From NCBI GenBank assembly GCA_965279035.1, contig OZ257142.1:556491-620490 (forward strand): a DNA stretch of 64,000 bases. Reading direction: 5' to 3'. The stretch's first letter is position 1; every line of letters starts with the position of its first letter. The stretch comes from Bacteroidia bacterium. Its GTDB lineage: Bacteria; Bacteroidota; Bacteroidia; M30B66. Of the stretch, positions 27,076-56,541 are shown in pieces. Made by a program: the position numbers and the translations under genes. The notes beneath the pieces are model-generated. The model was not told the DNA's origin. It was given only the letters and a program-made list of their open reading frames with translations, and did no database searches.

Positions 27076-27078
27076 AGT

Positions 27079-27151
27079 GGAGAATACCGGATTCGAACCG
27101 GTCGCCTCTTGCCTGCCAGGCAAGCGCTCTAGCCAAATGAGCTAATTCCCC
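27079..27151 (-). tRNA. tRNA-Ala (anticodon GGC)
   Basis: Reverse complement GGGGAATTAGCTCATTTGGCTAGAGCGCTTGCCTGGCAGGCAAGAGGCGACCGGTTCGAATCCGGTATTCTCCA. It forms a cloverleaf with G3:U70, anticodon loop CTGGCAG and a T-arm GGTTCGAATCC. CCA is not encoded. Confidence 0.85.
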
Positions 27152-35345: not shown

Positions 35346-37502
35346 TTAAGGCTTGGTTGTAGCAATTTGACCAAAGACAATTTTGTTCTCTCCTTTGATG
35401 TCTGTTCCAAGTCGTTGCAAGTAGGAAATCATGGCGATGATTTCTTTGTTAGGCAAGGCTTCGATACCAGACTCTTTAAGGTTATTTACAATTTTGTTTT
35501 GTTGGCGAACCAAGTCTTGGTTAGCAATCTTATCATAGCCTTCAGGATAAGGTACACCCAAAGTCATCATAGCACGAATTTTAGGAGCAGTTGATGTAGT
35601 ATCTAAATCATCGTCAAGTAACCAAGGATACATTGGCATGATTGAACCTGGTGACATGGTACGAGGATCATCCATGTGGTTGTAGTGCCAGCTATCAGGA
35701 TATTTTCCTCCTTCTCTTTGCAAATCTGGACCTGTACGTTTTGATCCCCACTGGAATGGATGGTCATAAACATATTCTCCAGCTTTTGAATATTCACCAT
35801 AACGTTCTGTTTCGAAACGGAATGGACGAATCATTTGGCTGTGACAAGTGTAACATCCTTCACGAACATAAATATCACGACCTTGAAGTTCAAGTGGAGT
35901 GTAAGGTTGAACAGAAGCAATTGTTGGAATATTACTCTTAATCAAGAATGTTGGAATCATTTCAACTAAACCACCAATCAGAATCATGATTAAGCTGAAC
36001 AATAGCATTTGAAATGGCTTACGTTCAATTACACGGTGCCATCCTTCTGAAGCTTGGTGACCTGGAGTTGCGCCTTTTGGAAGTGGAGCAGCTTCGGCAG
36101 CTTCGTTTGCAATGAATTTACCAGCAAATGCTGTTTTCCATAAGTTGTAAATCATTACCAAGAAACCAACTAAGTATAACGTACCACCTAAAGAGCGAAG
36201 CGCATACATTGGAATCAATTGAGTTACTGTTTCCAAGAAGTTTGGATAACGTAGGAATCCATCAGCAGTAAACTCTCTCCACATTTCGAACTGAGTTAGA
36301 CCAGCCCAATAAAGTGGAATCGCATAGAACATGATTCCAAGTGTGCCAATCCAGAAATGGAAGTTGGCTAGTTTTTTAGAGAAAAGTTCACGGCCATAGA
36401 AGCGTGGGAATAACCAGTATAGCATACCAAAGGTTAACATACCGTTCCATCCTAAAGCCCCCACGTGAACGTGTGCTATAATCCAATCGGTAAAGTGAGC
36501 AATCGCATTTACGTTTTTCAACGAAAGCATTGGTCCTTCAAACGTCGACATACCATAAGCAGTGATTGCCACTACCATGAACTTCAATACCACATCTTCA
36601 CGAACTTTATCCCAAGCTCCACGAAGTGTCAATAATCCGTTAATCATACCACCCCAACTTGGAGCGATCAACATAAAGGAGAATACTACCCCTAATGATT
36701 GAGCCCAATCAGGAAGTGCTGTATATAACAAGTGGTGAGGACCAGCCCAGATATATAAGAAAATAAGTGCCCAGAAGTGGATAATCGATAGACGGTAAGA
36801 GTAAACCGGACGACCAGCTGCTTTTGGTACGAAATAGTACATTAAACCTAAGTAAGGAGTAGTAAGGAAAAATGCCACCGCATTGTGACCATACCACCAC
36901 TGAACCAAAGCATCCTGAACACCTGCGTATGCACTGTAGCTTTTCAAGAAACTTACAGGAAGTTCCATTGAGTTAACAATGTGTAATACCGCTACTGTTA
37001 CGAAGGTTGCGATGTAGAACCAAATCGCTACATATAAGTGTTGCACCCGGCGTTTAACAATGGTTCCGAACATGTTAATCCCGAAAACCACCCAGATTAA
37101 TGCAATTGCAATATCGATTGGCCATTCGAGTTCGGCATATTCCTTACCAGTTGTGTAACCCAATGGTAAAGTAAGAGCAGCTGCAAGAATGATTAATTGC
37201 CATCCCCAGAAGTGAATGTTACTTAATGCATTACTAAACATTCGGGCTTTTAAAAGCCTTTGAAGTGAATAGTAAACACCTGCAAATATTCCGTTTCCTA
37301 CAAAAGCGAAAATTACCGCATTCGTATGCAGCGGTCTAAGTCGGCCAAATGTAGTTAAGGGAAAACCCAGGTTAAGGTTCGGGAATACGAGCTCCAGCGC
37401 GATGTAAAGTCCTACAAGCATTCCAATTAATCCGAAGATTATGGATGCTACAGCGAAGTTTCGCGGGGTTCGGTTGTCGTACTCAAAACGTTCTAGTTCC
37501 AT
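35346..37502 (-). CDS. ccoNO: cbb3-type cytochrome c oxidase fused subunits I+II (CcoN-CcoO)
   Basis: 718 aa with a heme-copper oxidase N-terminal domain fused to a C-terminal mono-heme cytochrome c (CYTCHS). Confidence 0.9.
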   Translation of the reverse strand: MELERFEYDNRTPRNFAVASIIFGLIGMLVGLYIALELVFPNLNLGFPLTTFGRLRPLHTNAVIFAFVGNGIFAGVYYSLQRLLKARMFSNALSNIHFWGWQLIILAAALTLPLGYTTGKEYAELEWPIDIAIALIWVVFGINMFGTIVKRRVQHLYVAIWFYIATFVTVAVLHIVNSMELPVSFLKSYSAYAGVQDALVQWWYGHNAVAFFLTTPYLGLMYYFVPKAAGRPVYSYRLSIIHFWALIFLYIWAGPHHLLYTALPDWAQSLGVVFSFMLIAPSWGGMINGLLTLRGAWDKVREDVVLKFMVVAITAYGMSTFEGPMLSLKNVNAIAHFTDWIIAHVHVGALGWNGMLTFGMLYWLFPRFYGRELFSKKLANFHFWIGTLGIMFYAIPLYWAGLTQFEMWREFTADGFLRYPNFLETVTQLIPMYALRSLGGTLYLVGFLVMIYNLWKTAFAGKFIANEAAEAAPLPKGATPGHQASEGWHRVIERKPFQMLLFSLIMILIGGLVEMIPTFLIKSNIPTIASVQPYTPLELQGRDIYVREGCYTCHSQMIRPFRFETERYGEYSKAGEYVYDHPFQWGSKRTGPDLQREGGKYPDSWHYNHMDDPRTMSPGSIMPMYPWLLDDDLDTTSTAPKIRAMMTLGVPYPEGYDKIANQDLVRQQNKIVNNLKESGIEALPNKEIIAMISYLQRLGTDIKGENKIVFGQIATTKP

Positions 37503-37509
37503 GGCAACG

Positions 37510-37701
37510 TCAATGTTTAGGGATTGGTTGGGTTGAAGGTGTTTCTTTCTTAGGCTCTATGGCTTCATCATCAAATAGCATTCGCACAGATGGTGTGTAA
37601 CTGTCGTCGAACTGACCTTTTTTCACCGACCAAAGGAAGGCTGCTAAAAAGGCAAGTGCTACGCAAATGCTGATAAAAATTAGTACATAGAGTGCGCTCA
37701 T
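37510..37701 (-). CDS. ccoS: cbb3-type cytochrome oxidase maturation protein CcoS
   Basis: 63 aa with LYVLIFISICVALAFLAAFLWSVKKGQFDD, the CcoS/FixS signature. Confidence 0.85.
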   Translation of the reverse strand: MSALYVLIFISICVALAFLAAFLWSVKKGQFDDSYTPSVRMLFDDEAIEPKKETPSTQPIPKH

Positions 37702-37820
37702 AAGGAGGAGCTAATTGGGATTTCTAATAGTGTCAAAAATAGACCTGTGTTAAAAGGTGTTAAATGATGCGAGTCAGGTGGGAATATGATTTTAGTCAGG
37801 TTTTATATGGGTATTTCTAC

Positions 37821-40244
37821 TCACAAATTTTTCTTCCTAGCTATTAGCGTAGAACTTAGTGTAGCAATTGAGACAATACTTATGGATGTTACAGGCATAA
37901 GTATGGCGGCAATTACGGGTTGTAGCTCACCTCGAACTGCGAACCATAATCCTACACAGTTATATAATAGCGAGATGGCAAAGCTTACAGCGATTACTCG
38001 TTTACCACTTTTACAATAATCCAATAGCGTGTTTAGTCGAGATAAAATCTTCCCATCCAAAATCGCATCGCAGGCTGGAGAAAAGTTGTTCAGATTATCC
38101 GATACCGCAATTCCCGCATCACTTTGTTGTAAAGCACCGGCATCATTCAATCCATCACCCAACATCAAAACTGTTTTGCCTTCATCTTGAAGTTTGCGGA
38201 TGAAGTTGAGTTTGTCTTCAGGTGATTGTTTGAAGTGCATTTGATTCGGCTCAAACCATGAGCTCAATTGCTGACGATCCGAATCGGTATCTCCACTCAA
38301 CAAATACATGTCGTACTTGCGGCCTAAGCGACTTAATAATGTAGGAAGTTGATCGCGTAGCTGATGTTGAAGGGTATAAAAACCACACGATTCACCATTG
38401 ATTCTTAAGTAAATCCGAGTCGTGTTAAGCTTTTCTTCCAATAACTCTTGATTGGTAAATGATGCTGATCCAACTTGAACCATCATCCCGTTTACCATTC
38501 CTTGGATTCCTTTACCCGAAAATTCACTGAAGTCGCTTACTACCAAACGTTCGTTACCCTGATACGATGCTGCTATGCTGCTACTTAAAGGATGTGTTGA
38601 TTGCAGCACCAATGAATACACAGCAGTGATTTCATCTTTCGTTAGCTGTCTTCCTTGGAAAGTCACTTCCGCATCTCGACTTAAAGTAATGGTGCCAGTT
38701 TTATCAAAGACAATCGTATCGGCTTTCGCCATTTTTTCAATCACAAAAGCATTCTTGAGGAAGAATCCATTTCGTCCTAAAATGCGGAGTACGTTTCCAT
38801 TCGCAAAGGTGGATGCGAGGAGCAAAATACACGGACAAGCCACAATCAAAATGGTGGTTACCGCATTCATCATTCGATGAGTTTCTCCCGCCCAAAGCCA
38901 ATAGGATGCTGAAGCAAGCGCCACAATAAAAATCCCCAGCGTAAAATACTGGTTGATTTTATTTTCCATGGATGCTTTCTCTTCTTCGGCTTGGTCTTTT
39001 CGGAAAGCAGGACTATTCCATAATTGGGTGAGGTAGCTTTGTTTAACGGGTTTAACAATTTCAAGCTCGATGCTCGTGCCCGATTGTCGCCCGCCGGCAT
39101 AAACTAAATCTCCTTTTTTACGAATGATAGGATCTGATTCACCGGTAACAAAACTGTAATCCACTTTTGCCTCACCACGCAAAAGAATCGCATCAGCAGG
39201 AACTATTTCCTGATTACGAATCAACATGCGCATCCCCTTTTTAATTCGAGTTACTGGAATTTGTTCTTCTCCCGAATCGGAGATAACAGTTACTGCTACT
39301 GGGAAATACGATTTATAATCACGGTCAAATGCTAATGTTTCGAAGGTTCTATTTTGGAATGCCCGTCCAATTAGCATAAAAAACACGATGCCTGTCATGG
39401 AATCGAAATATCCTGGCCCAGTTCCGCTCAAGAGTTCGTAAACACTTCTGAGAAAGGTCATTAATACTGCAGCTGCAATAGGTAAATCGATGTTAAGGTG
39501 TTTGCTGCGTATGGCTCCAATTCCCGAGATAAAAAAGTCACGACTGCTATAAAAAAGCACAGGAAGTGAAAGGGCAAAATTGAGCCAGCTAAAGGTGAGT
39601 TTCAAATCAGCATTTCCAGCTACTTCACCAATGGAGAAGTATTCAGGAAAACTCATCATCATAATATTACCAAAACAAAAACCGGCGATCCCGATTTTAT
39701 ACCATTGGCTCCGATCGACTTTTATGGCTTGTTTGTCTTCGATATCGTTTAAGCTGATATGCGGTTCATAACCAATCATGGTCATTCGTTCGGCAATTTT
39801 GCTCAAACTGGTTTCTGCTTGTTGGAAGATAACGGTTACCTCACGCTTAGGGAAGTTGACCGAAGAACTTATCACACCTTTTTCTAATCTTTGCAAGTTT
39901 TCAAGCAACCAAATACAGGAACTACAATGAATTCCTGGGACGAAAAAGGTAATGTGAGATTGTTTGTCGTTTGTAAAATGAAGGAGTTTGTTGCTCACTT
40001 CCGCTTGATCGAGGTAAGAGAATTTACCTGTGTAATTGGCTTTGTCAGGTGAATTTCCGGAGGATGGATTGAGTGTATAATAGCTACAAAGATTGTTTTC
40101 GTTTAGAATTTCGAATACCAATCGGCAGCCATCGCAACAAAATGCTTTGTCTTCAATCCATGTTGTAGTTTCCTTACAATTTTCTCCACAATGATAACAA
40201 TGGAGATCGGTTCTGATTTTGGGCTCACTCGTTTTGGGTAACAT
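37821..40244 (-). CDS. ccoI: Copper-translocating P-type ATPase (CcoI/FixI)
   Basis: 807 aa with N-terminal CxxC metal-binding regions, CPC (VACPCIL), DKTGT and GDGLNDAGAL. Confidence 0.9.
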   Translation of the reverse strand: MLPKTSEPKIRTDLHCYHCGENCKETTTWIEDKAFCCDGCRLVFEILNENNLCSYYTLNPSSGNSPDKANYTGKFSYLDQAEVSNKLLHFTNDKQSHITFFVPGIHCSSCIWLLENLQRLEKGVISSSVNFPKREVTVIFQQAETSLSKIAERMTMIGYEPHISLNDIEDKQAIKVDRSQWYKIGIAGFCFGNIMMMSFPEYFSIGEVAGNADLKLTFSWLNFALSLPVLFYSSRDFFISGIGAIRSKHLNIDLPIAAAVLMTFLRSVYELLSGTGPGYFDSMTGIVFFMLIGRAFQNRTFETLAFDRDYKSYFPVAVTVISDSGEEQIPVTRIKKGMRMLIRNQEIVPADAILLRGEAKVDYSFVTGESDPIIRKKGDLVYAGGRQSGTSIELEIVKPVKQSYLTQLWNSPAFRKDQAEEEKASMENKINQYFTLGIFIVALASASYWLWAGETHRMMNAVTTILIVACPCILLLASTFANGNVLRILGRNGFFLKNAFVIEKMAKADTIVFDKTGTITLSRDAEVTFQGRQLTKDEITAVYSLVLQSTHPLSSSIAASYQGNERLVVSDFSEFSGKGIQGMVNGMMVQVGSASFTNQELLEEKLNTTRIYLRINGESCGFYTLQHQLRDQLPTLLSRLGRKYDMYLLSGDTDSDRQQLSSWFEPNQMHFKQSPEDKLNFIRKLQDEGKTVLMLGDGLNDAGALQQSDAGIAVSDNLNNFSPACDAILDGKILSRLNTLLDYCKSGKRVIAVSFAISLLYNCVGLWFAVRGELQPVIAAILMPVTSISIVSIATLSSTLIARKKNL

Positions 40245-40258
40245 GTGGCAATTGGGAT

Positions 40259-40849
40259 TTAATCATCATTACTTCTCGATATCTTCCCTACTAAGGCAAG
40301 ACTGCTCAACTTCATTACTTCGGCTTCTAGCTCGATGATTTTAGGAAATAGATTTATTTTTTCTCGCTCAAGATTCTGAAGAAAGTCATTGTTGAATTCT
40401 TTGAGTTCTGCAAAACACAACTTCAACAATTCATCAGAATTCAATGGAGGATGGAAATTATTTGTAAGTCGTTTTATAGAATGTAAGAGCGCTTCGATGT
40501 GCGTATGTTCCTCTTGTATTCGACGAATGCTGCTTTCCATTAAGCGAACATTCAAAAAGCGGATAGGCTCTGGGTTTTCCTTTATTTCGATGAGTTTGCG
40601 AACAAAAGGGAATAGACTGTTTTCTTCTTGAACAATGAGTAGATTAACCTTGACTTCGATTTGTTCTAGTAAGGAAACTAAATCTTGTAAATGGATAGCA
40701 TAATTCAAATTGCCTTTTGAAGCGGATTTGAAATTTCGAGCCATCAATTTCAACATCGATTTCGACATAGCATGATGACGACTTTCTATAAAGTCGAGCA
40801 AATCAGCTTCGCCAATGGATGAAAAATTTATGTGGTTGAAACTTCGCAT
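40259..40849 (-). CDS. Hypothetical protein, possibly hemerythrin-like, associated with the cco cluster
   Basis: 196 aa with several His/Glu-rich helices (SRHHAMSK, EEHTHIEALLHS). The assignment is tentative. Confidence 0.5.
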   Translation of the reverse strand: MRSFNHINFSSIGEADLLDFIESRHHAMSKSMLKLMARNFKSASKGNLNYAIHLQDLVSLLEQIEVKVNLLIVQEENSLFPFVRKLIEIKENPEPIRFLNVRLMESSIRRIQEEHTHIEALLHSIKRLTNNFHPPLNSDELLKLCFAELKEFNNDFLQNLEREKINLFPKIIELEAEVMKLSSLALVGKISRSNDD

Positions 40850-40949
40850 GAATCATACTTCTCGATATTACAAATGTTTCTATTCTTATATCGATTTGAA
40901 ATGACCAGCCTCAGGTTGAAAGATGATAAAAATCAGTTTTTGGAAAATG

Positions 40950-40990
40950 AAAAAGCCGCTTTCCAATGAAGGAAAGCGGCTTTAAAAAAA
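40950..40990 (-). terminator. Strong rho-independent terminator downstream of the FG-GAP T9SS gene (12-bp stem AAGCCGCTTTCC/GGAAAGCGGCTT)
   Basis: Read directly. It separates the T9SS pair from the cco assembly genes. Confidence 0.75.
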
Positions 40991-41003: not shown

Positions 41004-43871
41004 TTATTGAATCACAACGCGAATTACTTTGCTAGCATCTTTAGAAGAAACTCGTAGCATATAAATACCTGCTTGAAGCTCATTCACAGCAAGTGTTCCA
41101 TTCATATTGATATTTTGTTCTTTCACAATTCTGCCTGTTGCATCCATCAACGAAACACGCCCATTAGTAATTGAAGTGCGGATATTCAAATTCATATCTG
41201 CTGGATTCGGAAATACAGAAAGAGTTGTTGTTGAATTTAGTTCGATTCCAGTAGTATTATCAACCGTTACAGAAACAGCATGTGCATCACTTGAGCAATA
41301 AGTAGGAGCTTGTTCAATGCTGATATTGTAGTAGTAGAAATAATATTGATTTCCATAAGTATTGCTGGTGATTGAAGCTAAATCTCCAATTAAATATGGA
41401 TAAGTAACAAGCGTATTGCTGTTTTCACGTTGAAGGCGAGGACTATTTTGACTTAATGTAGATTGATTAACACTCACATCAGGAAGTAAATAAAATCCAG
41501 TACCTACTGTAAGGTCAAAATTAGCATTGATCACATTTGTTCCACTTACAAGCGTTGCTGTAACTGAATTTAATAGAGTATTGCTGCTATTGTATAAATC
41601 GAATTTACGTGGACCAGGAGTATCAGTGTAAACAGTAAACGAACGAAGTGTTGAAACTTTGAATACATCAAAATACACTTTTGAATTCGTTGTAGTTGCT
41701 CCAAATTGATTGGATGTTAATGGTGTTACAATTCCACCATTGTCAATTCCACCACCATATCCATTCACATTGACAACATAATAAGTAGCTGTTGTAGTTA
41801 CTTCAGGTGTTGTAAAGCTATTTCCAGTTCCCAAAAGAGTACCTCCAATAGCATCGTACCATTGAATGCTATCTCCTGTTGCTGTTAAAGTGGCACTACC
41901 TGGAGTTGGTAAAGTTACATTGTCTGCAACCGCTTGATTAGGAGTTAATTCAGTAACATTAATTGCTGAAGATGTAAATGTTGAACAAGCTCCTTGTATT
42001 GTTAAAGTGTAGGTACCTGATTGATCAACAGTTGTTGTATTAGTACCTGTTGTTCCATTGCTCCAAGAATATCCGTTTAAGCCTGTTGGTGCTTGAAGTA
42101 CGACAGAACCACCATTACAAAATGTAGTTTCGCCAACTGCAGAAATAGCGGGTGTTTCATCTGGCGATAATGTTACTGTAATTGTTTTTGAAACTGAATT
42201 ACAAGCATTATTTGAAGTTTGTAATACTCGCACATTGTATTCTCCAGCTGCTGTAATATTAGCTGTTTGGCTTGTAGATCCATCAGACCACAAATAATCA
42301 AATCCTTGTGGAGCTGTTAAAGCAAGTGTTTGTCCTTGACATAGAACATAATCTCCAGCAGTTGTGATAATTGCCTCAGGAGCAACACACACATTTTCTC
42401 TAACCGATAAAAATTGATCTACCTGTGGGTTAAGAATTACTTGAGAAGCGCCAGACGGCCAGCTAATTACTACAGAATCAATAGCTGTGTTTGTTCCAAG
42501 TCCAAAGTGTAAGATGGAAGTATTTACAGCACCATAGCCTTCGCCAGTGCGAACTTCTCGCATTTGAACTCCCCAAGCACCGTAAATTTTAGCACGTGCA
42601 CCAACTGCACCTAAATTACTAACAGTTCCTTCCAAATCGAGGTTGAAAAAGTGCTTACCTGATGTAGATCCATTCATCCAAATCACATCATTCACCGAAG
42701 ATGGAGTTGTATAAATGCTCGCATAACTACCATAAATATCAACAGCACCGTCGTGATTCAAATCACCAATTCCAAATGACTCCATGCTGTTGTTGTCGAA
42801 TGTTCCGTTGATACGAGTAAATGTACTGTTCCCATTATTATGATAAAAACGAGATGAACTTCCTGCAACCAAGATATCCACAAATCCATCATTGTCGAAA
42901 TCTTCCATTACCGACTGAATTGGAGTGATATCAGAAAGAACTACTCCTGCAGTTGCAGAAATATCTGTGTAATGACCAGTTCCGTCGTTTTGAAATATTT
43001 GACTTTCATGGTCATGATTAGTCAACAAAAGATCTAAGTCAGAGTCATTATCAATATCACCGAAGCTTGCAGTCCAAGTTTGCCAAAAGCAATTCAAATT
43101 GTAAGAAGCAGCATCTTCAGTGAATGTACCATCGCCATTGTTTACAAACATTACGTTTACACGACGAGGATCTGAACCATCAGTAACAGATGAACTTTGA
43201 CGACATTTTGCAATGTATAAATCTAAGTCGCCATCGTTATCGAAATCGGTCCAAACACTACCATAATTACCTGAATCCATTGGATCGCCACCAATATTTC
43301 CTGGGTGAAGTGTAAAGTTGATAGTAGTGGTTGAAGGAACTAATCCTCCAGATCCATTATTTAAGTAAATGTGTGCAGGATTGTTGTCGTCGCACACAAA
43401 AAGATCTTCCCAGCCATCATTATTAAAGTCAGCTGATGTTACGTTTTGAACGAAATAACTACCGGCTAAATTGCTAACAGTACCAGTCATTCCATCGTTA
43501 CTAATCATCATAATTTTTGGCTGAGAACTGCTTCCTGCCATGATGTCTTTGTAGCCATTGTGATCAAAGTCAGCAACGCACATAGCCCAAGCCCATCCTG
43601 AACTTGAACTAAAATCACCTAAATAACGAGTTTCAAAAGTTTGATTTGTACGTTGAATTTCAACATAAGCCGAACGACCATATTTTAGACGAACAATGTC
43701 ATCCAATCCGTCGTTGTTCCAATCGATAACTGCAACAGGGCAGCCGCTCGTAAATGCTGGAGTGTTTAATTTAGCATTGGCATTTGTGAATTGAAATTGA
43801 GCTTGAACAGAAGCAGCAGTTCCAACGACGAACAAACACAAAGCGGCAATGCGATGTAAAGATGTTTTCAT
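41004..43871 (-). CDS. FG-GAP/VCBS repeat (CRTAC1-like) secreted protein with T9SS type A C-terminal sorting domain
   Basis: Signal peptide, repeated DxNNDGxxD FG-GAP motifs, and C-terminal FPNPADMNLNI...GIYMLRVSSKDASKVIRVVIQ. Confidence 0.85.
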   Translation of the reverse strand: MKTSLHRIAALCLFVVGTAASVQAQFQFTNANAKLNTPAFTSGCPVAVIDWNNDGLDDIVRLKYGRSAYVEIQRTNQTFETRYLGDFSSSSGWAWAMCVADFDHNGYKDIMAGSSSQPKIMMISNDGMTGTVSNLAGSYFVQNVTSADFNNDGWEDLFVCDDNNPAHIYLNNGSGGLVPSTTTINFTLHPGNIGGDPMDSGNYGSVWTDFDNDGDLDLYIAKCRQSSSVTDGSDPRRVNVMFVNNGDGTFTEDAASYNLNCFWQTWTASFGDIDNDSDLDLLLTNHDHESQIFQNDGTGHYTDISATAGVVLSDITPIQSVMEDFDNDGFVDILVAGSSSRFYHNNGNSTFTRINGTFDNNSMESFGIGDLNHDGAVDIYGSYASIYTTPSSVNDVIWMNGSTSGKHFFNLDLEGTVSNLGAVGARAKIYGAWGVQMREVRTGEGYGAVNTSILHFGLGTNTAIDSVVISWPSGASQVILNPQVDQFLSVRENVCVAPEAIITTAGDYVLCQGQTLALTAPQGFDYLWSDGSTSQTANITAAGEYNVRVLQTSNNACNSVSKTITVTLSPDETPAISAVGETTFCNGGSVVLQAPTGLNGYSWSNGTTGTNTTTVDQSGTYTLTIQGACSTFTSSAINVTELTPNQAVADNVTLPTPGSATLTATGDSIQWYDAIGGTLLGTGNSFTTPEVTTTATYYVVNVNGYGGGIDNGGIVTPLTSNQFGATTTNSKVYFDVFKVSTLRSFTVYTDTPGPRKFDLYNSSNTLLNSVTATLVSGTNVINANFDLTVGTGFYLLPDVSVNQSTLSQNSPRLQRENSNTLVTYPYLIGDLASITSNTYGNQYYFYYYNISIEQAPTYCSSDAHAVSVTVDNTTGIELNSTTTLSVFPNPADMNLNIRTSITNGRVSLMDATGRIVKEQNINMNGTLAVNELQAGIYMLRVSSKDASKVIRVVIQ

Positions 43872-43933
43872 AAAGAGGTTAAGGTTGAGATGGTATTAGA
43901 ACTACAAATATGTAGAAATTTCTGTTATTCAGC

Positions 43934-45880
43934 TTAGTCGGATGTTAAAAGAATTCGTTGAGTGTAATTTTTTCCAATTGCTTGAACTTGGATTACATAT
44001 ACTCCGGCTGCTTTTGCGCCTTTAATATGCCAACTATTGTCAGCATTTTTTTTCCATTGAATTGGAACTTCTTGTCCCGAAATAGTAAACATTCGAATTG
44101 CTTGCGGTTTCAAAGAAAAACGCATGTTAATTCCACTCGAAATGCTGGCAGGATTTGGATAAAATACAGGAGCCTTTACATTCAACGCATCTGCATATAA
44201 AGGACTAATCAATTCGGTTAAACTATCGCCCGCAACAAGAACTGGTTTGTTGTCGGATGCATCAAACATGGTTAAAAATGAATTTATTTCAGAAGCATCC
44301 AAGGTGCGCATCTCCGAAAGCCAAGCAGGAGGAACTGTTTGATAATAAACTTTGGCAGTTGTTTTAAATGCACCACTATATCCTTGAAGTGAAACGCGAT
44401 AATGAATGATATCTTTTCCTGTTCCTTGTGTTGTGCCTGCTAAATTGAAATCGGGGTCTGAAGCTGCTTCTCCAACAATTTGAACAGTATCGTAAGATGC
44501 ATGTTGAGTCGAGAATCCAAGTGGTGGAATACGATTATCTTTCAAATGAACATCGGCTCTCTCGAGAATTGTTGTGAAATCACCATTCACATCTCCCATA
44601 TTCATTTCGTAAATCTGAACCTGATTTTCAGCATGAATCACATCATGATGAGGCTCCACAAATCCACCATAATTCACGATTTCGCCACTTTGATCAAATG
44701 TTCCTGAACGGAATAAGGTATCGCCAGCTTCTGTCGTTACTACAAATTCTACAAATGCTCTTCGAGATGGATAGCCACTTGGGAATTTATGTCCTGATTT
44801 ATTGGTTAACATTAATTCAAATCCAACACTGTCATCAAAAAATACAGGATCTGATAATTCAGCCTTCAACGTATTGTATCGTAAATTACGTGTGATAGTT
44901 GAAATGGTCGAATCGAAATTTGCTTCATTGGCGATAATACCCAGAGCATCTTTATTTCTACGAATTAAATCAACCATGAAACTATTCGCGCCAGCAAAAC
45001 TGTGTTGATTAAAAGGACTTCTTCCCAACAATGCCGTATAGCCAACAGCAATTTTAACGGGATCTTCCACTTGAGGCATGTGGCAGGTTTGACAGGTTTT
45101 TCCTTGTCCGGGATAACTCGAATTGAGCCATTCCTGAAAAGTAGCTTGTTCAACAAAAGTGCTTCCAGTGGGAACGCCTTGTAAATCGACAGTATGCGAT
45201 ATTAAAGTGTGACAAGGAGAGCAAAATCTTCCTTGACTAACATGTTCGCTGTATGTTGGGGTGAAATTTACGTACAACTGCATTGGTCCAAAAAAAGGAT
45301 TGATAAATGGGCCATACGCAACACGGTTTGTATCATACGGAATATCTCCTGTAAATCGACTACCTAAGCCATTCGTTCCTATCGCGTGGCAGCCAAGGCA
45401 TCCAACACCTGATAATCCGAGTGAATCATCTTGAAGATCTTCTAAAGTATAATGATCTGCCCCTTTAAAGAAAGCCGAAAAATGCCCCATTGGAGCGTGA
45501 CAATCGGTACATAAATTTTGAAGTTCAATGGCATGTGCTGGATTGGTCAAAACCTCTTGTCGAACCTTTGCTTTCCATAATGGATCAACACCGGCAAGTC
45601 CCATCATGGATGTTTCCCAATCATCGAAAAGATTAATGTCCACACCATCGAGCGTCACATTGGCTAGTCCTTGAGGATCGCGTCCATGGCATCCTTTACA
45701 GCGAGATGCGGGAAGAAAAATGGCAGTAGTATCAATACTGCGACTATGCATTTTAAGTAAAGCTTGAAAATGTCTGTTCGTGAGACTTTCTGGTTTTTCT
45801 GAACTCTCTCGTCCGGTAAGAGACACCGCTGCAAGCACGAACAAAAAAAGCGTACCAATGATGAGTAAACGTTTTTTCAC
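43934..45880 (-). CDS. Pentaheme c-type cytochrome with T9SS type A C-terminal sorting domain
   Basis: Signal peptide, five CxxCH motifs (CKGCH, CTDCH, CLGCH, CSPCH, CQTCH) in the N-terminal ~270 aa, a ~300 aa domain of unknown function, and C-terminal FYPNPASISSGIN...GVYVIQVQAIGKNYTQRILLTSD. Confidence 0.85.
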   Translation of the reverse strand: MKKRLLIIGTLFLFVLAAVSLTGRESSEKPESLTNRHFQALLKMHSRSIDTTAIFLPASRCKGCHGRDPQGLANVTLDGVDINLFDDWETSMMGLAGVDPLWKAKVRQEVLTNPAHAIELQNLCTDCHAPMGHFSAFFKGADHYTLEDLQDDSLGLSGVGCLGCHAIGTNGLGSRFTGDIPYDTNRVAYGPFINPFFGPMQLYVNFTPTYSEHVSQGRFCSPCHTLISHTVDLQGVPTGSTFVEQATFQEWLNSSYPGQGKTCQTCHMPQVEDPVKIAVGYTALLGRSPFNQHSFAGANSFMVDLIRRNKDALGIIANEANFDSTISTITRNLRYNTLKAELSDPVFFDDSVGFELMLTNKSGHKFPSGYPSRRAFVEFVVTTEAGDTLFRSGTFDQSGEIVNYGGFVEPHHDVIHAENQVQIYEMNMGDVNGDFTTILERADVHLKDNRIPPLGFSTQHASYDTVQIVGEAASDPDFNLAGTTQGTGKDIIHYRVSLQGYSGAFKTTAKVYYQTVPPAWLSEMRTLDASEINSFLTMFDASDNKPVLVAGDSLTELISPLYADALNVKAPVFYPNPASISSGINMRFSLKPQAIRMFTISGQEVPIQWKKNADNSWHIKGAKAAGVYVIQVQAIGKNYTQRILLTSD

Positions 45881-45946
45881 ATTCTTGAAATATAAAATCT
45901 TGGAGATAAGGTTTGAATTGATTTATAGATTGAAAATCAACACTAC

Positions 45947-46657
45947 CTAATCGTAAATGTTTGCTGCCTTTACTAATTGCTGATGATTTAGAATAGAAAT
46001 GCGTTTTCCATTCAAAGCAATTACTTGATCATTCTTCAATTCACTCAATAATCGGATAGCTGTTTCGGTGGCAGTTCCCACAATGTTTGCAATATCTTCA
46101 CGACTAAGAGTAACACTTATTGTAACTCCATCTTGATCTAGACCATAGGTTTGTTGCAAATAAAGCAAAGCTTCTGCAACCCTTTCTCTTACTGGCTTTT
46201 GAGCTATATCTGTAATGCGGTGTTCGGCATGTTTTAAATCTTCAGAAAGAAGTTTCATCAATTGCATTGATAAAACACCGTTGCCTTCAACCAGTTTTAA
46301 AAAGGAAGATTGTGGAATAAAACAGATTTTACAATCATCTAGAGCTTCAGCACTGGAAGAATATTTATCGCCACTTAAAAGAGCTCGATATCCTAAAATA
46401 TCTCCACCACGAGCCAACCTTACAATTTGCTCTTTCCCTTCATCTCCAATACGAAAAATCTTGATTTTCCCATCGTTCACACAATAAAGACCGTGTGGAT
46501 ACGAACCCGCATTAAATATTATTTGACCTTTTTTGAAATTGCTACAGCCCTTCGTTTCATTTAAAGCCTCTAAATCATGACCATGTAAGTCACAAAAAAC
46601 GGAACGCGATCTATTTGAACAATGCTCACAATCAGGTTGGTCGTTCTTTCGAAGCAT
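45947..46657 (-). CDS. fnr: Crp/Fnr family transcriptional regulator with N-terminal Cys cluster (FnrL-like oxygen sensor)
   Basis: 236 aa with N-terminal C-x2-C-x8-C (DCEHCSNRSRSVFC), a cNMP-binding fold and a C-terminal HTH. Confidence 0.8.
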   Translation of the reverse strand: MLRKNDQPDCEHCSNRSRSVFCDLHGHDLEALNETKGCSNFKKGQIIFNAGSYPHGLYCVNDGKIKIFRIGDEGKEQIVRLARGGDILGYRALLSGDKYSSSAEALDDCKICFIPQSSFLKLVEGNGVLSMQLMKLLSEDLKHAEHRITDIAQKPVRERVAEALLYLQQTYGLDQDGVTISVTLSREDIANIVGTATETAIRLLSELKNDQVIALNGKRISILNHQQLVKAANIYD

Positions 46658-46854
46658 AGGGATTTATTAATGGTGTAAATATAACATTCGAAATGTACAG
46701 TTCAACGTAAATAATTCAGATCAATTTAAATTGGGTTAAAATTCTATTTGTTTTTTAAAAACTCATGAAAAAAATCGAAAAGGGGACATGAATTCGGTTC
46801 ATTGGAAACTTACCTTCGCATCGAAATTAAATGCTGCGTTTTTACTAAAAATTT

Positions 46855-48603
46855 ATGCTTAGAACACATACTTGCGGGCAACTCCGCGCTTCTGAAATCG
46901 GAAACTCTGTTGAACTTTGTGGATGGGTTGCCAAATCGAGAGATCTTGGTGGAATGACGTTCATCGATTTACGCGATCGTTTTGGGATTACCCAGCTTGT
47001 TTTTAACATGGACGACAATCCCGTGCTTTGTGAAAGAGCTCGTAAACTTGGTCGGGAATATGTTTTACGTGTTAAAGGAGAAGTAAGAGAACGCTCAAGC
47101 AAAAACGCACAATTATCAACAGGAGACATAGAAATTCGAGCAGTTGAATTTGAAATATTAAATTCTTCTAAAACTCCACCTTTCACGATTGAAGATGATA
47201 CCGATGGTGGTGATGATCTCCGAATGAAATACCGCTACCTTGATTTGAGAAGAAATGCGGTTCGGAAAAACCTTGAACTTCGCCACAATCTTGCGAAAGC
47301 AATACGCTCGTATCTCGACAATGCTGGCTTTCTTGAAGTAGAAACACCTGTTTTGATAAAATCAACACCCGAAGGAGCACGCGATTTTATTGTGCCTTCT
47401 CGTATGAATCCGGGTGAATTTTATGCATTGCCACAAAGTCCTCAAACATTTAAGCAAATCCTTATGGTTGCTGGATTTGATCGATACTACCAAATTGTAA
47501 AATGCTTTCGTGATGAAGATTTACGTGCCGATCGTCAACCCGAATTTACTCAGATAGATTGCGAACTTTCTTTTATCGAACATGAAGACATTCTCACCAT
47601 TTTCGAAGGACTTGTTCGTGAACTTTTTATATCTGTAAAAAATATCACGTTCGAAGATTTTCCTCGCATTACTTATGCCGAAGCCATGGAGCAATATGGT
47701 AACGACAAACCCGATATTCGTTTCGATATGAAGATTTGTGATTTTACTTCACAAACACGCAATTCGGGATTTGTTGTTTTTGATCAAGCAGAATATGTTG
47801 CAGGTATTGCGGCAACAGGTTGTGCAGAATATACTCGCAAGCAAGTAGATGAATTAACAGATTGGGTAAAACGCCCTCAAATTGGTGCCGGTGGTTTAAT
47901 CTATATTCGAATGAATGCTGATGGAAGCGTAAAATCTTCGGTCGATAAATTCTTTGATGAAGCTCAACTTCGTTCATTTTGCGAACAAGTAAATGCCCAA
48001 AAAGGAGATTTGGTTCTCATTCTGGCAGGAGCTAAAACACGGATGCAAAAGGCATTAAGTGAATTACGTCTTGAAATGGGAAATCGTCTAGGATATCGCC
48101 CTAAGGACATCTTTGCTCCACTTTGGGTTCTTGATTTTCCTTTGCTTGAATGGGATGAGGACAATCAACGGTATCATGCCATGCATCACCCGTTTACTTC
48201 ACCTAAGCCAGAAGACGTTCCTCTTTTAGAAAAAGAACCAGGCAAGGTGCGTGCTAATGCTTACGATTTGGTCATTAATGGTGTAGAAGTAGGAGGAGGC
48301 TCTATTCGTATTTTCGATAAAGGCCTGCAAAAAAACATGTTTACCTTGTTAGGCTTTAGTGATGAAGATGCTCAGTCGCAATTTGGATTTTTGATGAATG
48401 CTTTTGAGTATGGTGCACCTCCGCATGGTGGAATTGCCTTGGGTTTCGACCGACTTTGTTCTATTTTCGGAGGAGTAGATTCTATTCGAGATTTTATTGC
48501 CTTCCCGAAAAATAATTCAGGACGCGATATGATGATCGATTCACCTTCGCCAGTAAGCGATGAACAATTGAAAGAACTTCAAATCTCAGTTCAAAAAAAA
48601 TAA
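46855..48603 (+). CDS. aspS: Aspartate--tRNA ligase
   Basis: 582 aa. [11 protein letters not shown] starts an OB anticodon-binding domain, with class II motifs including [18 protein letters not shown]. Confidence 0.95.
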
Positions 48604-50516: not shown

Positions 50517-51368
50517 TCAAAGTAAATTGAGAGAATGACGTATGTAAGAACTCAGAATGAGCGAATATTTTCGTGCATTTGGAATTCGAATTCGTTCTTC
50601 AAGTACGCGATTGGGAGAGGAATTGATGATTTTTTTATACAAGGCGAAATAGTAAACGTATGCTACATAAACACCAAAGCGAGCTCCTTTGGGGAGTCCT
50701 TTAATTCCATTATATCCATCGGAAAAATCTTTGAGAATGTCTTCTTCGATAGCACGTTTATTCTCTTCAGTAAATTCGCTCATGTTTAAATGAGGGAAAT
50801 ACACTCTTCCGAGAGTATGATAGTCATTGTGTAGGTCACGTAGAAAATTGATTTTTTGAAAAGCAGAACCAAGCCTCATAGCTGGGTTTTTGAGTCTTTC
50901 GTACATCGATTGACTTCCTTCGCAAAAAACGCGTAAACACATTAAGCCAACTACTTCTGCCGAACCTAAAATGTATTTTTCGTATGCAGCCTGATCGTAT
51001 TGTACTTTTTCAAGATCCATTTCCATGCTTTTTAGAAATGTATCAATCAGTTCATCTTCGATCCCATAGTGATTAACCGTTTGCTGAAAACTATGCAGTA
51101 TAGGATTCAAACTAATTCCCCTACGTATAGCGAGAAATGTATCTCTTCTAAATTCTTCAATTAAAAGGGAAGCATCAGAACGATTGAAACTATCTACAAT
51201 TTCATCAGCAAATCGAACAAATGCGTAGAGTGTATAAACAGGATCTTGGAACCGTTTTGAAAGTGACTTTATTCCAAGTGTGAAAGAAGTACTATACCGA
51301 TGTGTTGTAAATCGACTGCAGCGAAGACTTACAAAATTGTAATCGATCATAGGTCCGTTGTTTTTCAA
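50517..51368 (-). CDS. crtB: Phytoene/squalene synthase family protein (probable phytoene synthase)
   Basis: 283 aa with the isoprenoid synthase Asp-rich motifs YAFVRFADEIVD and a trans-IPPS head-to-head fold. Confidence 0.85.
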   Translation of the reverse strand: MKNNGPMIDYNFVSLRCSRFTTHRYSTSFTLGIKSLSKRFQDPVYTLYAFVRFADEIVDSFNRSDASLLIEEFRRDTFLAIRRGISLNPILHSFQQTVNHYGIEDELIDTFLKSMEMDLEKVQYDQAAYEKYILGSAEVVGLMCLRVFCEGSQSMYERLKNPAMRLGSAFQKINFLRDLHNDYHTLGRVYFPHLNMSEFTEENKRAIEEDILKDFSDGYNGIKGLPKGARFGVYVAYVYYFALYKKIINSSPNRVLEERIRIPNARKYSLILSSYIRHSLNLL

Positions 51369-51393: not shown

Positions 51394-51900
51394 TTATTTA
51401 TTATATCCTTTTAACATCGACATTAATTGACGACGCGCTAAGAAAATTCTGCTTTTTACAGTACCAATAGGTAGATCTAAATAATCAGCTATTTCCTTGT
51501 ATTTATAGCCATCGAAATACATATTAAATGGAACCCGATATTCATCTTGTAGCATTTCAATTTTCTTCAAAATTTCACGTTCAGAGTACTTTGACTCTGG
51601 GGCGAAACTTTGCGTTTGTTGAGGAATATTGAGGAAATACAAATCTTTTGTTGAATCAACAATTGTATTCGTTTTAACTGCTCTACGATAATTATTAATA
51701 AAGATGTTTTTCATGATGGTATACAACCATGCTTTCAAATTTGTTTTTTCAACAAATCGATGGCGGTTGCTGATTGCCTTCAGCAGCGTTTCTTGAAGAA
51801 GGTCTTTTGCTTCTTCATCATTGGAGGTAAGGTTTAATGCAAAGTATTTTAAGGGCTTGCTTAAACTCAAAACTTCGGAGTTGAATTCAAATGCTGACAT
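51394..51900 (-). CDS. RNA polymerase ECF-type sigma-70 factor
   Basis: 168 aa with sigma-70 region 2 (LLQETLLKAI, YTIMKNIFINNYRR) and region 4 (IADYLDLPIGTVKSRIFLARRQL). Confidence 0.85.
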   Translation of the reverse strand: MSAFEFNSEVLSLSKPLKYFALNLTSNDEEAKDLLQETLLKAISNRHRFVEKTNLKAWLYTIMKNIFINNYRRAVKTNTIVDSTKDLYFLNIPQQTQSFAPESKYSEREILKKIEMLQDEYRVPFNMYFDGYKYKEIADYLDLPIGTVKSRIFLARRQLMSMLKGYNK

Positions 51901-52165: not shown

Positions 52166-53071
52166 TTATTTCTTTTGCTCTGCAATTTCAATTAAGTCGA
52201 AAACAGATTTGATATTTGTTACATTTTTCCAATGGAACTTAATTTCGCAGGTTTGTGCGCCAGCAACTAGAAGCTTAGTGCTTCCAATTAAACCAGAGAT
52301 TTTATCGATATATGCTACGATAGAATCTGGTGAATAAGCAGCCGTAAAAAATGTCAAAATGTACTTTGGATGGTATTTGTTGCAATAGCTTAAAACATCT
52401 TCAAGCGGAACAGTTTGTCCTAAATAAATTACTCGTTTTCCTCTTACTTTTAATATGTATTTTGAAAACAAGAGCCCGATTTCGTGTAATTCTCCATCGG
52501 GAAGATACAAGAGCCAATCATCAGCATCTGGAGCAGCCACACCCGAATAACCATCCACTGCTACAAGGATTTTTTTGCGAATCATGTTGGTCATGAAATG
52601 CTCTTGAAAAACACTTGCTTCTCCAGTTCTCCACATGATTCCCACTTTTTGTAAAAATGGAATGAGAATGTTGAGCATCGTTTGTTCAAACCCATATTTT
52701 AGGGAACTTGTACTTATTACTTTTTCAAAACGAGCCTCATCCAATTCAATCATAGCAATGACTAAACTATCGGTCTGCGCTTCAAAAAAATGATCAATCG
52801 AAACAGGATGTTGAACCATATCCTGAATTCGTTTGCAAATTTCATCCTGATTGAGTTTAACCAAATGAGATATTTTTCCTCCATGACGAATCAATAAGGA
52901 AATGTTCAATAGAATTTTTAACTCTTGATCGTTGTATAAGCGAATGTTTGTATCGGTTCTGTCGGGATTTAGCAAATTGTAGCGTTGCTCCCATATGCGA
53001 ATCGTATGTGCTTTTATTCCGGAAAGACGCTCCAGATCTTTTATTGTATATTTTGAAGTCATTGAATGCAT
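52166..53071 (-). CDS. carH: MerR family transcriptional regulator with C-terminal cobalamin (B12)-binding domain (CarH/LitR-like light sensor)
   Basis: N-terminal MerR HTH (YTIKDLERLSGIKAHTIRIWEQRY) and a C-terminal B12-binding Rossmann-like domain (GELHEIGLLFSKYILKVRGKRVIYLG). Confidence 0.8.
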   Translation of the reverse strand: MHSMTSKYTIKDLERLSGIKAHTIRIWEQRYNLLNPDRTDTNIRLYNDQELKILLNISLLIRHGGKISHLVKLNQDEICKRIQDMVQHPVSIDHFFEAQTDSLVIAMIELDEARFEKVISTSSLKYGFEQTMLNILIPFLQKVGIMWRTGEASVFQEHFMTNMIRKKILVAVDGYSGVAAPDADDWLLYLPDGELHEIGLLFSKYILKVRGKRVIYLGQTVPLEDVLSYCNKYHPKYILTFFTAAYSPDSIVAYIDKISGLIGSTKLLVAGAQTCEIKFHWKNVTNIKSVFDLIEIAEQKK

Positions 53072-53231
53072 TTCCGATTATTCGCTATAGCACATCACTG
53101 AGCGTAATTAAAATTCTTTGATTCAAACAGATGTACTTTTAAAATGTTTAATCCCATTTAAAAGGAGTTTAAACTAAGCAAAACAAACCTATTTGAATTA
53201 GTAAGAGTTTGAAATGATAAGAATCAGTTTT

Positions 53232-53828: not shown

Positions 53829-53829
53829 G

Positions 53830-56448: not shown

Positions 56449-56541
56449 GGAATTCGGGATTGGAAAGATAAGGATTCCAACGAATGGCGCTTCGAATTGT
56501 TGGAAAGCAAAAACGGGAAGCAAATGCCCCCCGTTTTGTAC

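Follow-up and report, generated by a model that had tools for sequence, protein, structure and literature searches.

Several multiheme systems resemble parts of the locus described here. In metal reducers, the multiheme c-type cytochromes MtrC and OmcA sit on the outer face of the outer membrane. They are lipoproteins that depend on the type II secretion system for delivery, and they are not known to occur without a trans-membrane porin-cytochrome conduit (MtrAB). Each carries ten hemes and has a fold different from that of the cytochrome studied here. MccSep is a pentaheme selenoprotein polysulfide reductase of Geobacter sulfurreducens and occurs mainly in Desulfobacterota and Nitrospirota (bioRxiv 10.1101/2025.11.18.688581). 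This periplasmic protein of the MccSep/ExtKL type (9wt8) is built from a five-heme cap and an Ig-like stem. Cytochrome c552 of Thermochromatium tepidum (5ze8) likewise holds five c-type hemes in a helical domain joined to an Ig-like domain. It is periplasmic and soluble, with ~385-435 residues, no secretion domain and no known CRTAC1-like partner. The function of low-potential c552 is itself not established.

Vertebrate CRTAC1 (cartilage acidic protein 1, 9etn) combines an FG-GAP calcium-binding propeller with a UnbV/ASPIC domain. We know of no bacterial member of this family with an established function. Bacterial CRTAC1-family genes lie in hydrazine synthase-related heme-c clusters of Planctomycetota, Syntrophobacter and Paludibaculum (PMC12758564). 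The CRTAC1-like gene analysed here also has a cytochrome partner, but one from a different family.

Layout and conservation of the gene pair

A cytochrome gene and a CRTAC1-like gene stand side by side, between an fnr-like gene and cbb3 oxidase genes, in the window, the 64,000-nucleotide stretch of Bacteroidia DNA that we analysed. The features, in the direction of transcription, are as follows.

45947..46657 (-): Fnr-like Crp/Fnr regulator, 236 aa; cNMP_binding and HTH_Crp_2 domains, recognition helix E-T-A-I-R
45881..45946 (-): fnr-to-cytochrome gap, 66 nt; no Fnr-type box, weak promoter-like TTCAAA-17-TATATT
43934..45880 (-): pentaheme c-type cytochrome, 648 aa, GTG start; signal peptide, five-heme cap, Ig-like stem, T9SS type A domain
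43872..43933 (-): cytochrome-to-propeller gap, 62 nt
41004..43871 (-): CRTAC1-like protein, 955 aa; signal peptide, propeller, UnbV/ASPIC, Ig-like and T9SS type A domains
40952..40983 (-): intrinsic terminator, 13-bp stem with 7 G-C pairs and T-rich tail; closes the cytochrome-propeller unit
40899..40938 (-): pair of Fnr-type boxes in tandem, CTGATTTTTATCAT and CTGAGGCTGGTCAT (22 bp apart), in front of the hemerythrin-like gene and ccoI
40259..40849 (-): hemerythrin/RIC-like di-iron protein of 196 aa; 14-nt gap to ccoI downstream
37821..40244 (-): ccoI, copper P-type ATPase with N-terminal cbb3-type metal-binding domain
37762..37801 (-): second such pair, CTGACTAAAATCAT and CTGACTCGCATCAT (22 bp apart), in front of ccoS-ccoNO
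35346..37701 (-): ccoS (37510-37701) and fused ccoNO (35346-37502), first genes of the cbb3 oxidase operon

The fnr, cytochrome and 955-aa propeller reading frames lie on the minus strand at exactly the coordinates given by a first-pass annotation made from the sequence alone. The strong terminator that it described is real, with a 13-bp rather than a 12-bp stem (40983..40952) before the T-rich tail, and a hairpin also lies 3' of the orthologous propeller gene in five related loci. It placed this terminator before the ccoI block and missed the 196-aa hemerythrin/RIC-like frame in between.

The two T9SS genes travel together. Our informative set is the 49 loci, all from species-representative genomes, in which at least 1.5 kb of sequence follows the cytochrome gene. 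In 47 of them the propeller gene comes next, immediately downstream and on the same strand, with gaps of -9 to 125 nt, and the adjacency recurs in metagenome loci down to ~42-47% cytochrome identity. The pair is found in several unrelated contexts, for example with pyruvate kinase, M42 peptidase or FtsX-like permease genes, and at most of these loci the genes around it are unrelated housekeeping genes. Apart from the propeller gene we found no conserved neighbour, and neither an outer-membrane electron conduit nor any other redox partner lies beside the pair in any context. All recovered loci come from Bacteroidota MAGs from lake, pond, wastewater and soil, a taxonomic range unlike that of MccSep.

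Bacteroidota genomes hold many T9SS cargo genes, often clustered, and two unrelated cargo genes might therefore sit side by side without functional meaning. However, order, strand and short gap are kept in those 47 loci across different contexts, the two proteins diverge in step with each other (Pearson 0.89, Mantel p 0.001), and one terminator stands after the second gene. Chance adjacency is strongly disfavoured, and we give it very little probability. Portability, adjacency and the strong terminator at its end bear out the earlier description of a discrete two-gene unit: 43934-45880 and 41004-43871 are a conserved two-gene operon. The pair is widely conserved, and uncharacterised, in uncultured Bacteroidota.

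The pentaheme cytochrome and its propeller partner

Both proteins are predicted T9SS type A cargo. Sec signal peptides can be read directly from the translations (MKKRLLIIGTLFLFVLAAVSLTG... in the cytochrome, MKTSLHRIAALCLFVVGTAASVQAQ... in the propeller protein), and both C-terminal sorting domains score above the TIGR04183 cut-off of 23 bits, the cytochrome at 32.1 bits (residues 574-644) and the propeller protein at 45.9. A T9SS type B cargo protein is encoded elsewhere in the window (53830-56523), which is indirect support for a T9SS in this genome and for export through it.

The cytochrome is a multiheme redox protein whose architecture, a five-heme cap plus an Ig-like stem, is that of c552 and MccSep/ExtKL. 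Five CxxCH motifs (C61, C124, C161, C220, C263) and the sorting domain uphold its first description as a redox-active pentaheme T9SS cytochrome. The best Foldseek match is 5ze8 (E 1e-12, probability 1.00, TM 0.60 on target), obtained with an AlphaFold heme domain of low confidence (pLDDT 40-60), and a weak profile match to 5ze8 (E 0.0085) covers four short collinear stretches. Both proteins carry the motifs W-x-x-S-M-[HM], C-x-x-C-H-A-P and H-x-x-P-[ST]-G. They differ in that identity is only ~15%, a c552 histidine is replaced by Met93, and the window protein has an extra ~120 residues before its sorting domain.

The cytochrome belongs to a very large family that has no name. Some members carry additional dockerin, Calx-beta, F5/8-C or PQQ-type GSDH propeller domains as fusions, and relatives in Acidobacteriota have as their partner a cytochrome c with a fused outer-membrane barrel-like domain. 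Pfam gave weak matches of the window cytochrome to MtrC/MtrF domains II/IV. We rejected an MtrC/OmcA-type protein with a porin-cytochrome conduit: PF22113 scores 22.4 bits, under its cut-off of 30, and the pair's ~140 loci have no conduit nearby.

Conserved residues supply enough candidate ligands for all five hemes. Across 127 diverged representatives, all five CxxCH motifs and the residues H293, H364 and H411 show little or no variation, and most sequences also keep M200 (125 of 127), M93 (117) and H213 (111). These positions suggest about four bis-His hemes and one His/Met heme, a set that would fit an electron carrier better than an MccSep-type enzyme.

The cytochrome might instead be a catalytic multiheme enzyme like MccSep. 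It would then be secreted as a reductase or peroxidase for a small molecule, with the propeller protein as accessory. Candidate substrates would be polysulfide, peroxide or a nitrogen oxide. Remote homology to MccSep (bioRxiv 10.1101/2025.11.18.688581) speaks for such an enzyme. Profile searches returned weak matches to both 5ze8 and MccSep over the loop N-x-x-G-H-x-[FI]-P-x-G-x-P, which the Ig-like stem carries as the invariant GHKFPSGYPSRR. This is the most conserved motif of the cytochrome family, and its MccSep counterpart bears Sec325: N-H-A-G-H-S-I-P-D-G-U-P of MccSep aligns with N-K-S-G-H-K-F-P-S-G-Y-P of the window cytochrome. E244, Q245 and E250 are also almost invariant; their segment corresponds to the MccSep region of the heme-2 distal cysteine, and these residues could form an open catalytic pocket. 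In other phyla, CRTAC1-family genes lie inside clusters of hydrazine synthase-related catalytic heme proteins (PMC12758564).

The details of the active site nevertheless depart from MccSep. The Sec325 position is Y370 here and varies across the 127 representatives (Y in 67, F in 35, I in 18, H in 6). The heme-2 distal ligand Cys239 has no counterpart, and no cysteine outside the ten of the CxxCH motifs is conserved in that set. Conserved His and Met residues would suffice for six-coordination of all five hemes. The NCBIfam ExtKL model (NF040886) matches weakly, at E 1e-7 and 30.6 bits against a cut-off of 250. MccSep is periplasmic, whereas the window cytochrome carries a T9SS domain. We consider an MccSep-like enzyme improbable. 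Membership of the MccSep/ExtKL family itself was rejected, given the lack of Sec or Cys at the U325 position, the lack of C239 and the ExtKL score.

The 955-aa partner is a CRTAC1-like protein, in keeping with its original reading as an FG-GAP/CRTAC1-like T9SS protein. Domain searches detected FG-GAP_3 (PF13517, E 2e-38), UnbV_ASPIC (PF07593, E 7e-19), Ig_7 and the T9SS type A domain. The FG-GAP calcium-binding beta-propeller with UnbV/ASPIC spans about residues 30-490; C-terminal to it lie three Ig-like domains, a beta-sandwich domain and the sorting domain (residues 886-955). Murine CRTAC1 (9etn) matches in sequence (E 1e-6) and is the best match in fold (E 2e-20, TM 0.67), with a C-terminal region of its own in place of the Ig-like, beta-sandwich and sorting domains. 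Further fold matches are the Ig repeats of the T9SS adhesin GhpA, the PVL lectin and integrin alpha, giving the protein the look of an adhesin- or lectin-like propeller with Ig repeats.

The Fnr-like regulator and its operators

The 236-aa regulator is a distant Fnr relative. It matches PF00027 (E 1e-22) and PF13545 (E 1.5e-16), and its best NCBIfam match is Fnr (NF008365, E 6e-33). That match reaches 114 bits, below the 228-bit cut-off, and we therefore classify the protein as a distant relative rather than an equivalog. The N-terminal C-x2-C-x8-C motif noted at first reading is present (C10-x2-C13-x8-C22), and Cys10, Cys13, Cys22, Cys38 and Cys112 are conserved in 14 of 14 orthologues. Identity to E. 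coli FNR is 31%; the two share the cysteine cluster, with C10, C13 and C112 aligned to C20, C23 and C122, and an E--(S/I)R recognition helix in which Ser212 of E. coli is Ile here. By this alignment and conservation, four cysteines (C10, C13, C22 and C112) would be able to hold a [4Fe-4S] cluster.

Fnr-type operators mark the cco promoters. The operator CTGAy-N4-rTCAk occurs as tandem boxes 22 bp apart at both the hemerythrin-ccoI and the ccoS-ccoNO promoter. Across the clade, 10 of 10 cco-side intergenic regions hold such boxes, 20 in all and always in pairs 22 bp apart. At the hemerythrin-ccoI promoter, the -7 element ACATTTG ends 31 nt past box 2, and the same 31-nt spacing leads to the TAnnTTTG -7 element of the ccoS-ccoNO promoter. 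The centre of box 2 thus lies 37 nt before the last -7 base, near position -42, as in class II FNR/CRP promoters. Like FNR operators, the boxes are TGA-N6-TCA palindromes, with half-site CTGA instead of TTGA; unlike FNR promoters, these have boxes in tandem 22 bp apart and are of the Bacteroidetes type (TAnnTTTG). The window regulator probably binds these boxes.

The cytochrome-propeller pair lacks such operators. We built a matrix from the cco-side boxes and scanned the window and ~970 kb of related loci. The matrix recovers every cco-side site; it found no site of at least 10 bits in window positions 41004-46900, and none of at least 13 bits near the fnr or cytochrome gene in 63 related loci. 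The fnr-to-cytochrome gap (45881-45946), which the first-pass annotation had singled out for a motif search, is included and yielded no site. TGA-N6-TCA is absent from the proximal 90 nt upstream of the cytochrome gene, and the few copies within 250 nt are isolated and non-conserved. A search for canonical TTGAT-N4-ATCAA returned 11 matches against 8.3 expected, which is chance level.

Linkage to fnr and cco is limited to close relatives in the window's own clade. The pair does lie between fnr and cco in the window, as originally reported, and the order fnr-cytochrome-propeller is kept there and in 13 of 63 fetched loci. fnr is absent at L002 and L006, where the pair adjoins aspS, and at all loci more distant than L013, except L048, L053 and L055. 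cco genes follow the pair only in the window, L010, L011 and L013, and ~45 more distant loci have neither fnr nor a cco gene within 10-kb flanks. Signs are mixed as to whether the pair is a transcription unit of its own, as first proposed. In ten relatives the fnr-cytochrome gap shrinks to 20-37 nt, and some of these gaps hold a Shine-Dalgarno-like GGGAG or GGGGGG; such short gaps suggest co-transcription of the pair with fnr. In L002, L003 and L005 the gap upstream of the cytochrome gene holds a good Bacteroidetes-type promoter.

These results bear on the initial proposal of an oxygen-responsive module, in which the adjacent Fnr-like regulator would switch on the pair along with the cbb3 oxidase. 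The conserved gene order, the short gaps that suggest one transcript and a next downstream unit that is demonstrably box-controlled all speak for it. Against it stand the lack of a box upstream of the cytochrome gene or fnr, given a matrix that misses no cco-side site; the aspS-linked pairs without fnr; the ~45 distant loci with neither gene; and the chance-level canonical matches. Since the window and every related locus lack a box upstream of the cytochrome gene and fnr, control of the pair through an Fnr operator is not supported, and we regard the proposal as unlikely. The probable operators occur only at the hemerythrin-ccoI and ccoS-ccoNO promoters, so that the pair borders on the low-oxygen regulon and may be co-transcribed with fnr, but is not a demonstrable member. 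That the pair keeps its place 3' of fnr in the window as well as in 13 related loci could still be a sign of co-regulation by read-through.

A proposed role at the cell surface

The best explanation of the locus as a whole is a conserved two-gene cell-surface electron-transfer module beside, and not demonstrably within, a low-oxygen regulon, a reading to which we give a somewhat better than even chance. Both proteins would be exported by Sec, with heme attached to the cytochrome in the periplasm. They would then cross the outer membrane via T9SS and be either tethered to the surface or released. At the surface, the propeller/Ig protein would provide binding or a scaffold, while the cytochrome would transfer electrons. 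The pair would act as a surface redox module that exchanges electrons with a donor or acceptor outside the cell, for which metal oxides, Fe(II), humics and an extracellular dehydrogenase are candidates.

A bolder version is conceivable, although we would not expect it to hold. An unrecognised system of extracellular electron transfer could be widespread, with the pair as its form in Bacteroidota. In it the cytochrome would dock on the CRTAC1-like propeller, and in the window clade the system would be wired to microaerobic respiration via the neighbouring cbb3 oxidase. If true, this would for the first time hint at what the CRTAC1 family does, namely act as a partner of redox proteins. Substrates of such a system might include Fe(II)/Fe(III), Mn, humics and oxidised polymers. 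Within the same cytochrome family, coupling to the outer-membrane-barrel cytochrome c of Acidobacteriota and fusion to PQQ-type dehydrogenases are further arrangements of this cytochrome.

The cytochrome-propeller operon and its neighbourhood

The pair is a two-gene operon encoding two T9SS-type cargo proteins, a pentaheme cytochrome and a propeller/Ig protein. The three open reading frames that the first-pass annotation described at 41004-46657 were all found on the minus strand as described, and the terminator it placed 3' of the pair is real; five related genomes have hairpins in the corresponding place. It had overlooked a hemerythrin/RIC-like gene, the first of the next transcription unit, whose end lies 14 nt from ccoI. 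A type B sorting domain in an 897-aa protein elsewhere in the window gives independent, indirect evidence that the organism uses T9SS. An Rfam search of the 64-kb window returned no match besides one tRNA.

Features of the window
45947-46657, minus strand: Fnr-like Crp/Fnr regulator, 236 aa, cNMP_binding and HTH_Crp_2 domains
43934-45880, minus strand: cytochrome, 648 aa, GTG start, signal peptide, five CxxCH motifs, T9SS type A sorting domain
41004-43871, minus strand: propeller protein, 955 aa, FG-GAP repeats, UnbV/ASPIC, Ig_7 and T9SS type A domains
40983..40952, minus strand: terminator, 13-bp stem
40259-40849, minus strand: hemerythrin/RIC-like di-iron protein gene, 196 aa, TIGR03652 match (E 2e-16) in the C-terminal part only
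53830-56523, minus strand: T9SS type B cargo, 897 aa, TIGR04131 (44.5 bits, cut-off 35)
27078-27151, minus strand: tRNA (Rfam)

Cytochrome and propeller genes stay together across Bacteroidota. Scanning species-representative genomes with the cytochrome yielded 63 loci encoding relatives, all of them Bacteroidota MAGs with names that point to lake, pond, wastewater and soil samples. The propeller gene lies directly downstream on the same strand, with gaps of -9 to 125 nt, in 47 of the 49 loci (window included) that have at least 1.5 kb of downstream sequence, and this recurrence makes a fortuitous adjacency extremely improbable. The pairwise identities of cytochrome and propeller protein are correlated (Pearson 0.89, Mantel p 0.001), as co-inheritance of their genes would predict; shared species phylogeny adds to the correlation. 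Neighbour clustering revealed at least four other contexts of the pair, including pyruvate kinase, M42 peptidase, FtsX-type permease and other housekeeping genes. With such adjacency in several contexts, the earlier proposal of a two-gene surface redox/adhesion unit gains support as a portable unit.

Linkage of the pair to fnr and cco is clade-specific. The fnr gene lies upstream in the window and 13 loci only, all close relatives with cytochrome identity of at least 58%. In two further loci, the cytochrome gene still has aspS as its immediate neighbour and fnr is missing between them (L002, 6366-6658; L006, 9784-10001), and in another two, L012 and L048, the hemerythrin gene is kept without ccoI behind it. 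The start codon of the cytochrome gene is GTG or TTG throughout the fnr-linked clade (45878-45880 in the window; loci L001-L013, L048, L053 and L055) and ATG in several more distant relatives.

Fold, heme ligands and predicted role

The cytochrome is related by fold to known pentaheme proteins. Its sequence searches returned no solved relative, and all Pfam matches were sub-threshold. The AlphaFold model is confident at residues 300-560 and, as expected, poor in the heme-free cap; its closest fold is the low-potential pentaheme c552 of Thermochromatium tepidum (5ze8; E 1e-12, TM 0.60). A profile search gave weak collinear matches, centred on the stem loop, to 5ze8 and to Geobacter MccSep/ExtKL (9wt8). 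MccSep is a polysulfide-reducing pentaheme selenoenzyme whose Sec325 sits on the stem loop beside the Cys239-ligated heme 2 (bioRxiv 10.1101/2025.11.18.688581). The equivalent of Sec325 is Tyr370 in the window cytochrome and Y, F, I or H across 127 diverged representatives, which have no conserved Cys outside the CxxCH motifs. Since neither the Sec/Cys position nor the Cys ligand is conserved, an MccSep-type enzyme was rejected. Tyr370 as a catalytic stand-in for Sec was rejected too, as the position varies across the family; the cytochrome is a relative of MccSep by fold and not a member of its family.

Conserved candidate ligands argue for an electron carrier. H293, H364, H411, H213 (87%), M200 (98%) and M93 (92%), the last aligned with a His of c552, would suffice for six-coordination of each of the five hemes, one of which would be His/Met-ligated. 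A secreted catalytic heme enzyme is unlikely given such predicted coordination.

The propeller protein has a confident model (pLDDT 86). Its first ~490 residues match murine CRTAC1 (9etn; E 2e-20, TM 0.67) and also resemble PVL lectin and integrin alpha, and the remainder matches Ig repeats found in GhpA, a T9SS adhesin. The 120 orthologues listed share a single architecture, and their names go no further than 'FG-GAP-like/VCBS repeat-containing' or 'hypothetical'. Invariant residues are mostly DxDxDG calcium sites and disulfide cysteines, and no redox-cofactor motif was seen. There is precedent for a repeated association of CRTAC1-like proteins with cytochromes: in other phyla, bacterial CRTAC1-family genes are embedded between genes for hydrazine-synthase-related heme-c proteins (PMC12758564).

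We propose that both proteins would be exported by Sec, with heme attached in the periplasm, then translocated by T9SS and assembled into a redox module at the cell surface. There the propeller/Ig protein may bind or scaffold, and the cytochrome may pass electrons to an extracellular partner or accept them from it. The flanks of the pair encode no trans-outer-membrane conduit or other redox partner.

The cytochrome-propeller module is uncharacterised and widespread, and would belong among cell-surface multiheme cytochromes. Extracellular electron transfer, whose hallmark is multiheme cytochromes at the cell surface, is so far known mainly from metal reducers with type II secretion and porin-cytochrome conduits. 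Our literature search found no paper linking T9SS with multiheme cytochromes; here, dozens of uncultured Bacteroidota MAGs conserve such a cytochrome together with a fixed partner. A surface redox role, if true, would add abundant aerobic heterotrophs to the organisms with extracellular redox chemistry and give CRTAC1-type proteins a testable function.

Beyond the pair, the cytochrome family is large and its settings diverse. It comprises at least 2,710 clusters at 50% identity (E <=1e-3), 557 of them at E <=1e-30. None of the ~240 relatives listed carries a functional name; they appear only as 'T9SS sorting domain-containing' or 'hypothetical'. Only the closest third of family members carry the sorting domain (47 of the 150 representatives). 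On metagenome contigs the propeller partner was found down to ~42-47% cytochrome identity and was absent below; the CRTAC1-like partner is thus not universal in the family, and Acidobacteriota use a different one. Fusion partners elsewhere in the family are, among others, dockerin plus TSP3, Calx-beta and F5/8 type C. In two proteins (P0202 and P0213, one of them with an F5/8 type C domain as well) the pentaheme module is fused C-terminally to a PQQ-type glucose/sorbosone dehydrogenase (GSDH) propeller (PF07995) and is probably the electron-accepting domain of a dehydrogenase. The Acidobacteriota pentaheme gene overlaps an upstream gene whose product joins a monoheme class I cytochrome c to a Phenol_MetA_deg-like outer-membrane beta-barrel with an aromatic last residue, a cytochrome-porin fusion that recalls Cyc2. 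The common theme of the fusions and the Acidobacteriota settings is an outer-membrane or extracellular location.

Acidobacteriota loci with the cytochrome c-barrel fusion
L064, 5844-7001
L066, 5926-7011
L067, 1357-2769
L068, 5847-7001

A candidate Fnr-type operator and transcription of the pair

The regulator upstream of the pair resembles Fnr. Fnr is its top NCBIfam match, with a score under the curated cut-off. The N-terminal C-x2-C-x8-C noticed in the first pass is present (C10, C13, C22) and, together with C38 and C112, kept in 14 of 14 orthologues. C10, C13 and C112 align with C20, C23 and C122 of E. coli FNR at 31% overall identity, and the recognition helix reads E-T-[AT]-I-R against E-T-I-S-R in E. 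coli.

Comparative motif discovery identified a candidate operator of a Bacteroidota Fnr-like regulator. The canonical box TTGAT-N4-ATCAA, allowing at most one mismatch, occurs 11 times in the window against 8.3 expected, with no site in the relevant intergenic regions; two mismatches gave an uninformative 108 sites. We dropped this motif because it occurs at chance frequency, and compared orthologous intergenic regions instead. There, CTGAy-N4-rTCAk (core TGA-N6-TCA) is invariably paired, with 22 bp between the two boxes. Six genomes have such a pair 5' of the hemerythrin-like gene and four have one 5' of ccoS (20 boxes, 10 of 10 regions). In three regions (both window promoters and L012, counted by hand), 31 nt separate the end of box 2 from the G of a Bacteroidetes -7 element (TAnnTTTG-like), which would centre box 2 near -42, like class II FNR/CRP promoters. 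The boxes provide a concrete, testable operator at cbb3 promoters. The hemerythrin/RIC-like gene is the first gene behind the tandem boxes at 40899-40938, and boxes stay upstream of it in L012 and L048, which lack ccoI there.

Candidate operator boxes
37762-37801, minus strand: tandem CTGAy-N4-rTCAk boxes, 22 bp apart, kept in 10 of 10 orthologous regions
40899-40938, minus strand: tandem boxes, as above
53212-53229, minus strand: fifth box, AACTGATTCTTATCATTT, 16.9 bits, just after ribE (53232-53858)

A weight matrix built from the boxes recovered the four cco-side sites, the fifth box and no others in the window. The fifth lies ~140 nt upstream of a gene for a CarH-like MerR/B12-type regulator (52166-53071), followed by genes for an ECF sigma factor (51394-51900) and a phytoene/squalene synthase-like protein (50517-51368); it may link oxygen sensing with light or carotenoid control.

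Regulation of the pair by Fnr found little favour in these scans. The first-pass annotation had suggested searching 45881-45946, the gap between fnr and the cytochrome gene, for Fnr-type motifs; the matrix found none 5' of the cytochrome gene or fnr, either in the window or across ~970 kb of related loci. With the cco-side sites as internal positive control, this negative result carries weight. In ten relatives 20-37 nt separate fnr from the cytochrome gene, and in some of them GGGAG or GGGGGG precedes the GTG start codon; this favours a single transcript with fnr. An Fnr-controlled low-oxygen module is unlikely: the operator evidence does not support the earlier oxygen-responsive reading, the fnr/cco linkage is confined to close relatives, and the pair cannot be counted as a demonstrated member of the Fnr regulon.

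The fnr-cytochrome gap varies in length and content. Among the window's closest relatives the gap is 61-80 nt. A good Bacteroidetes promoter match, TTTG-N19-TAAATTTG, lies upstream of the cytochrome gene in L002, L003 and L005; it sits in the fnr-cytochrome gap of the latter two and persists in L002, which lacks fnr. The window's own 66-nt gap holds a weak promoter-like match only. These arrangements are compatible with either an own promoter or read-through from fnr. In seven other loci (L036, L038, L046, L051, L054, L058 and L062), a conserved leader, GGACGTACGAAAAAGCACTCCACACAAGTCACTTTTTTGG, follows a -7 element, TAATTTGG, ~30-70 nt 5' of the cytochrome gene; with a possible AT-rich hairpin and T run, it may act as an attenuator or operator in another lineage.
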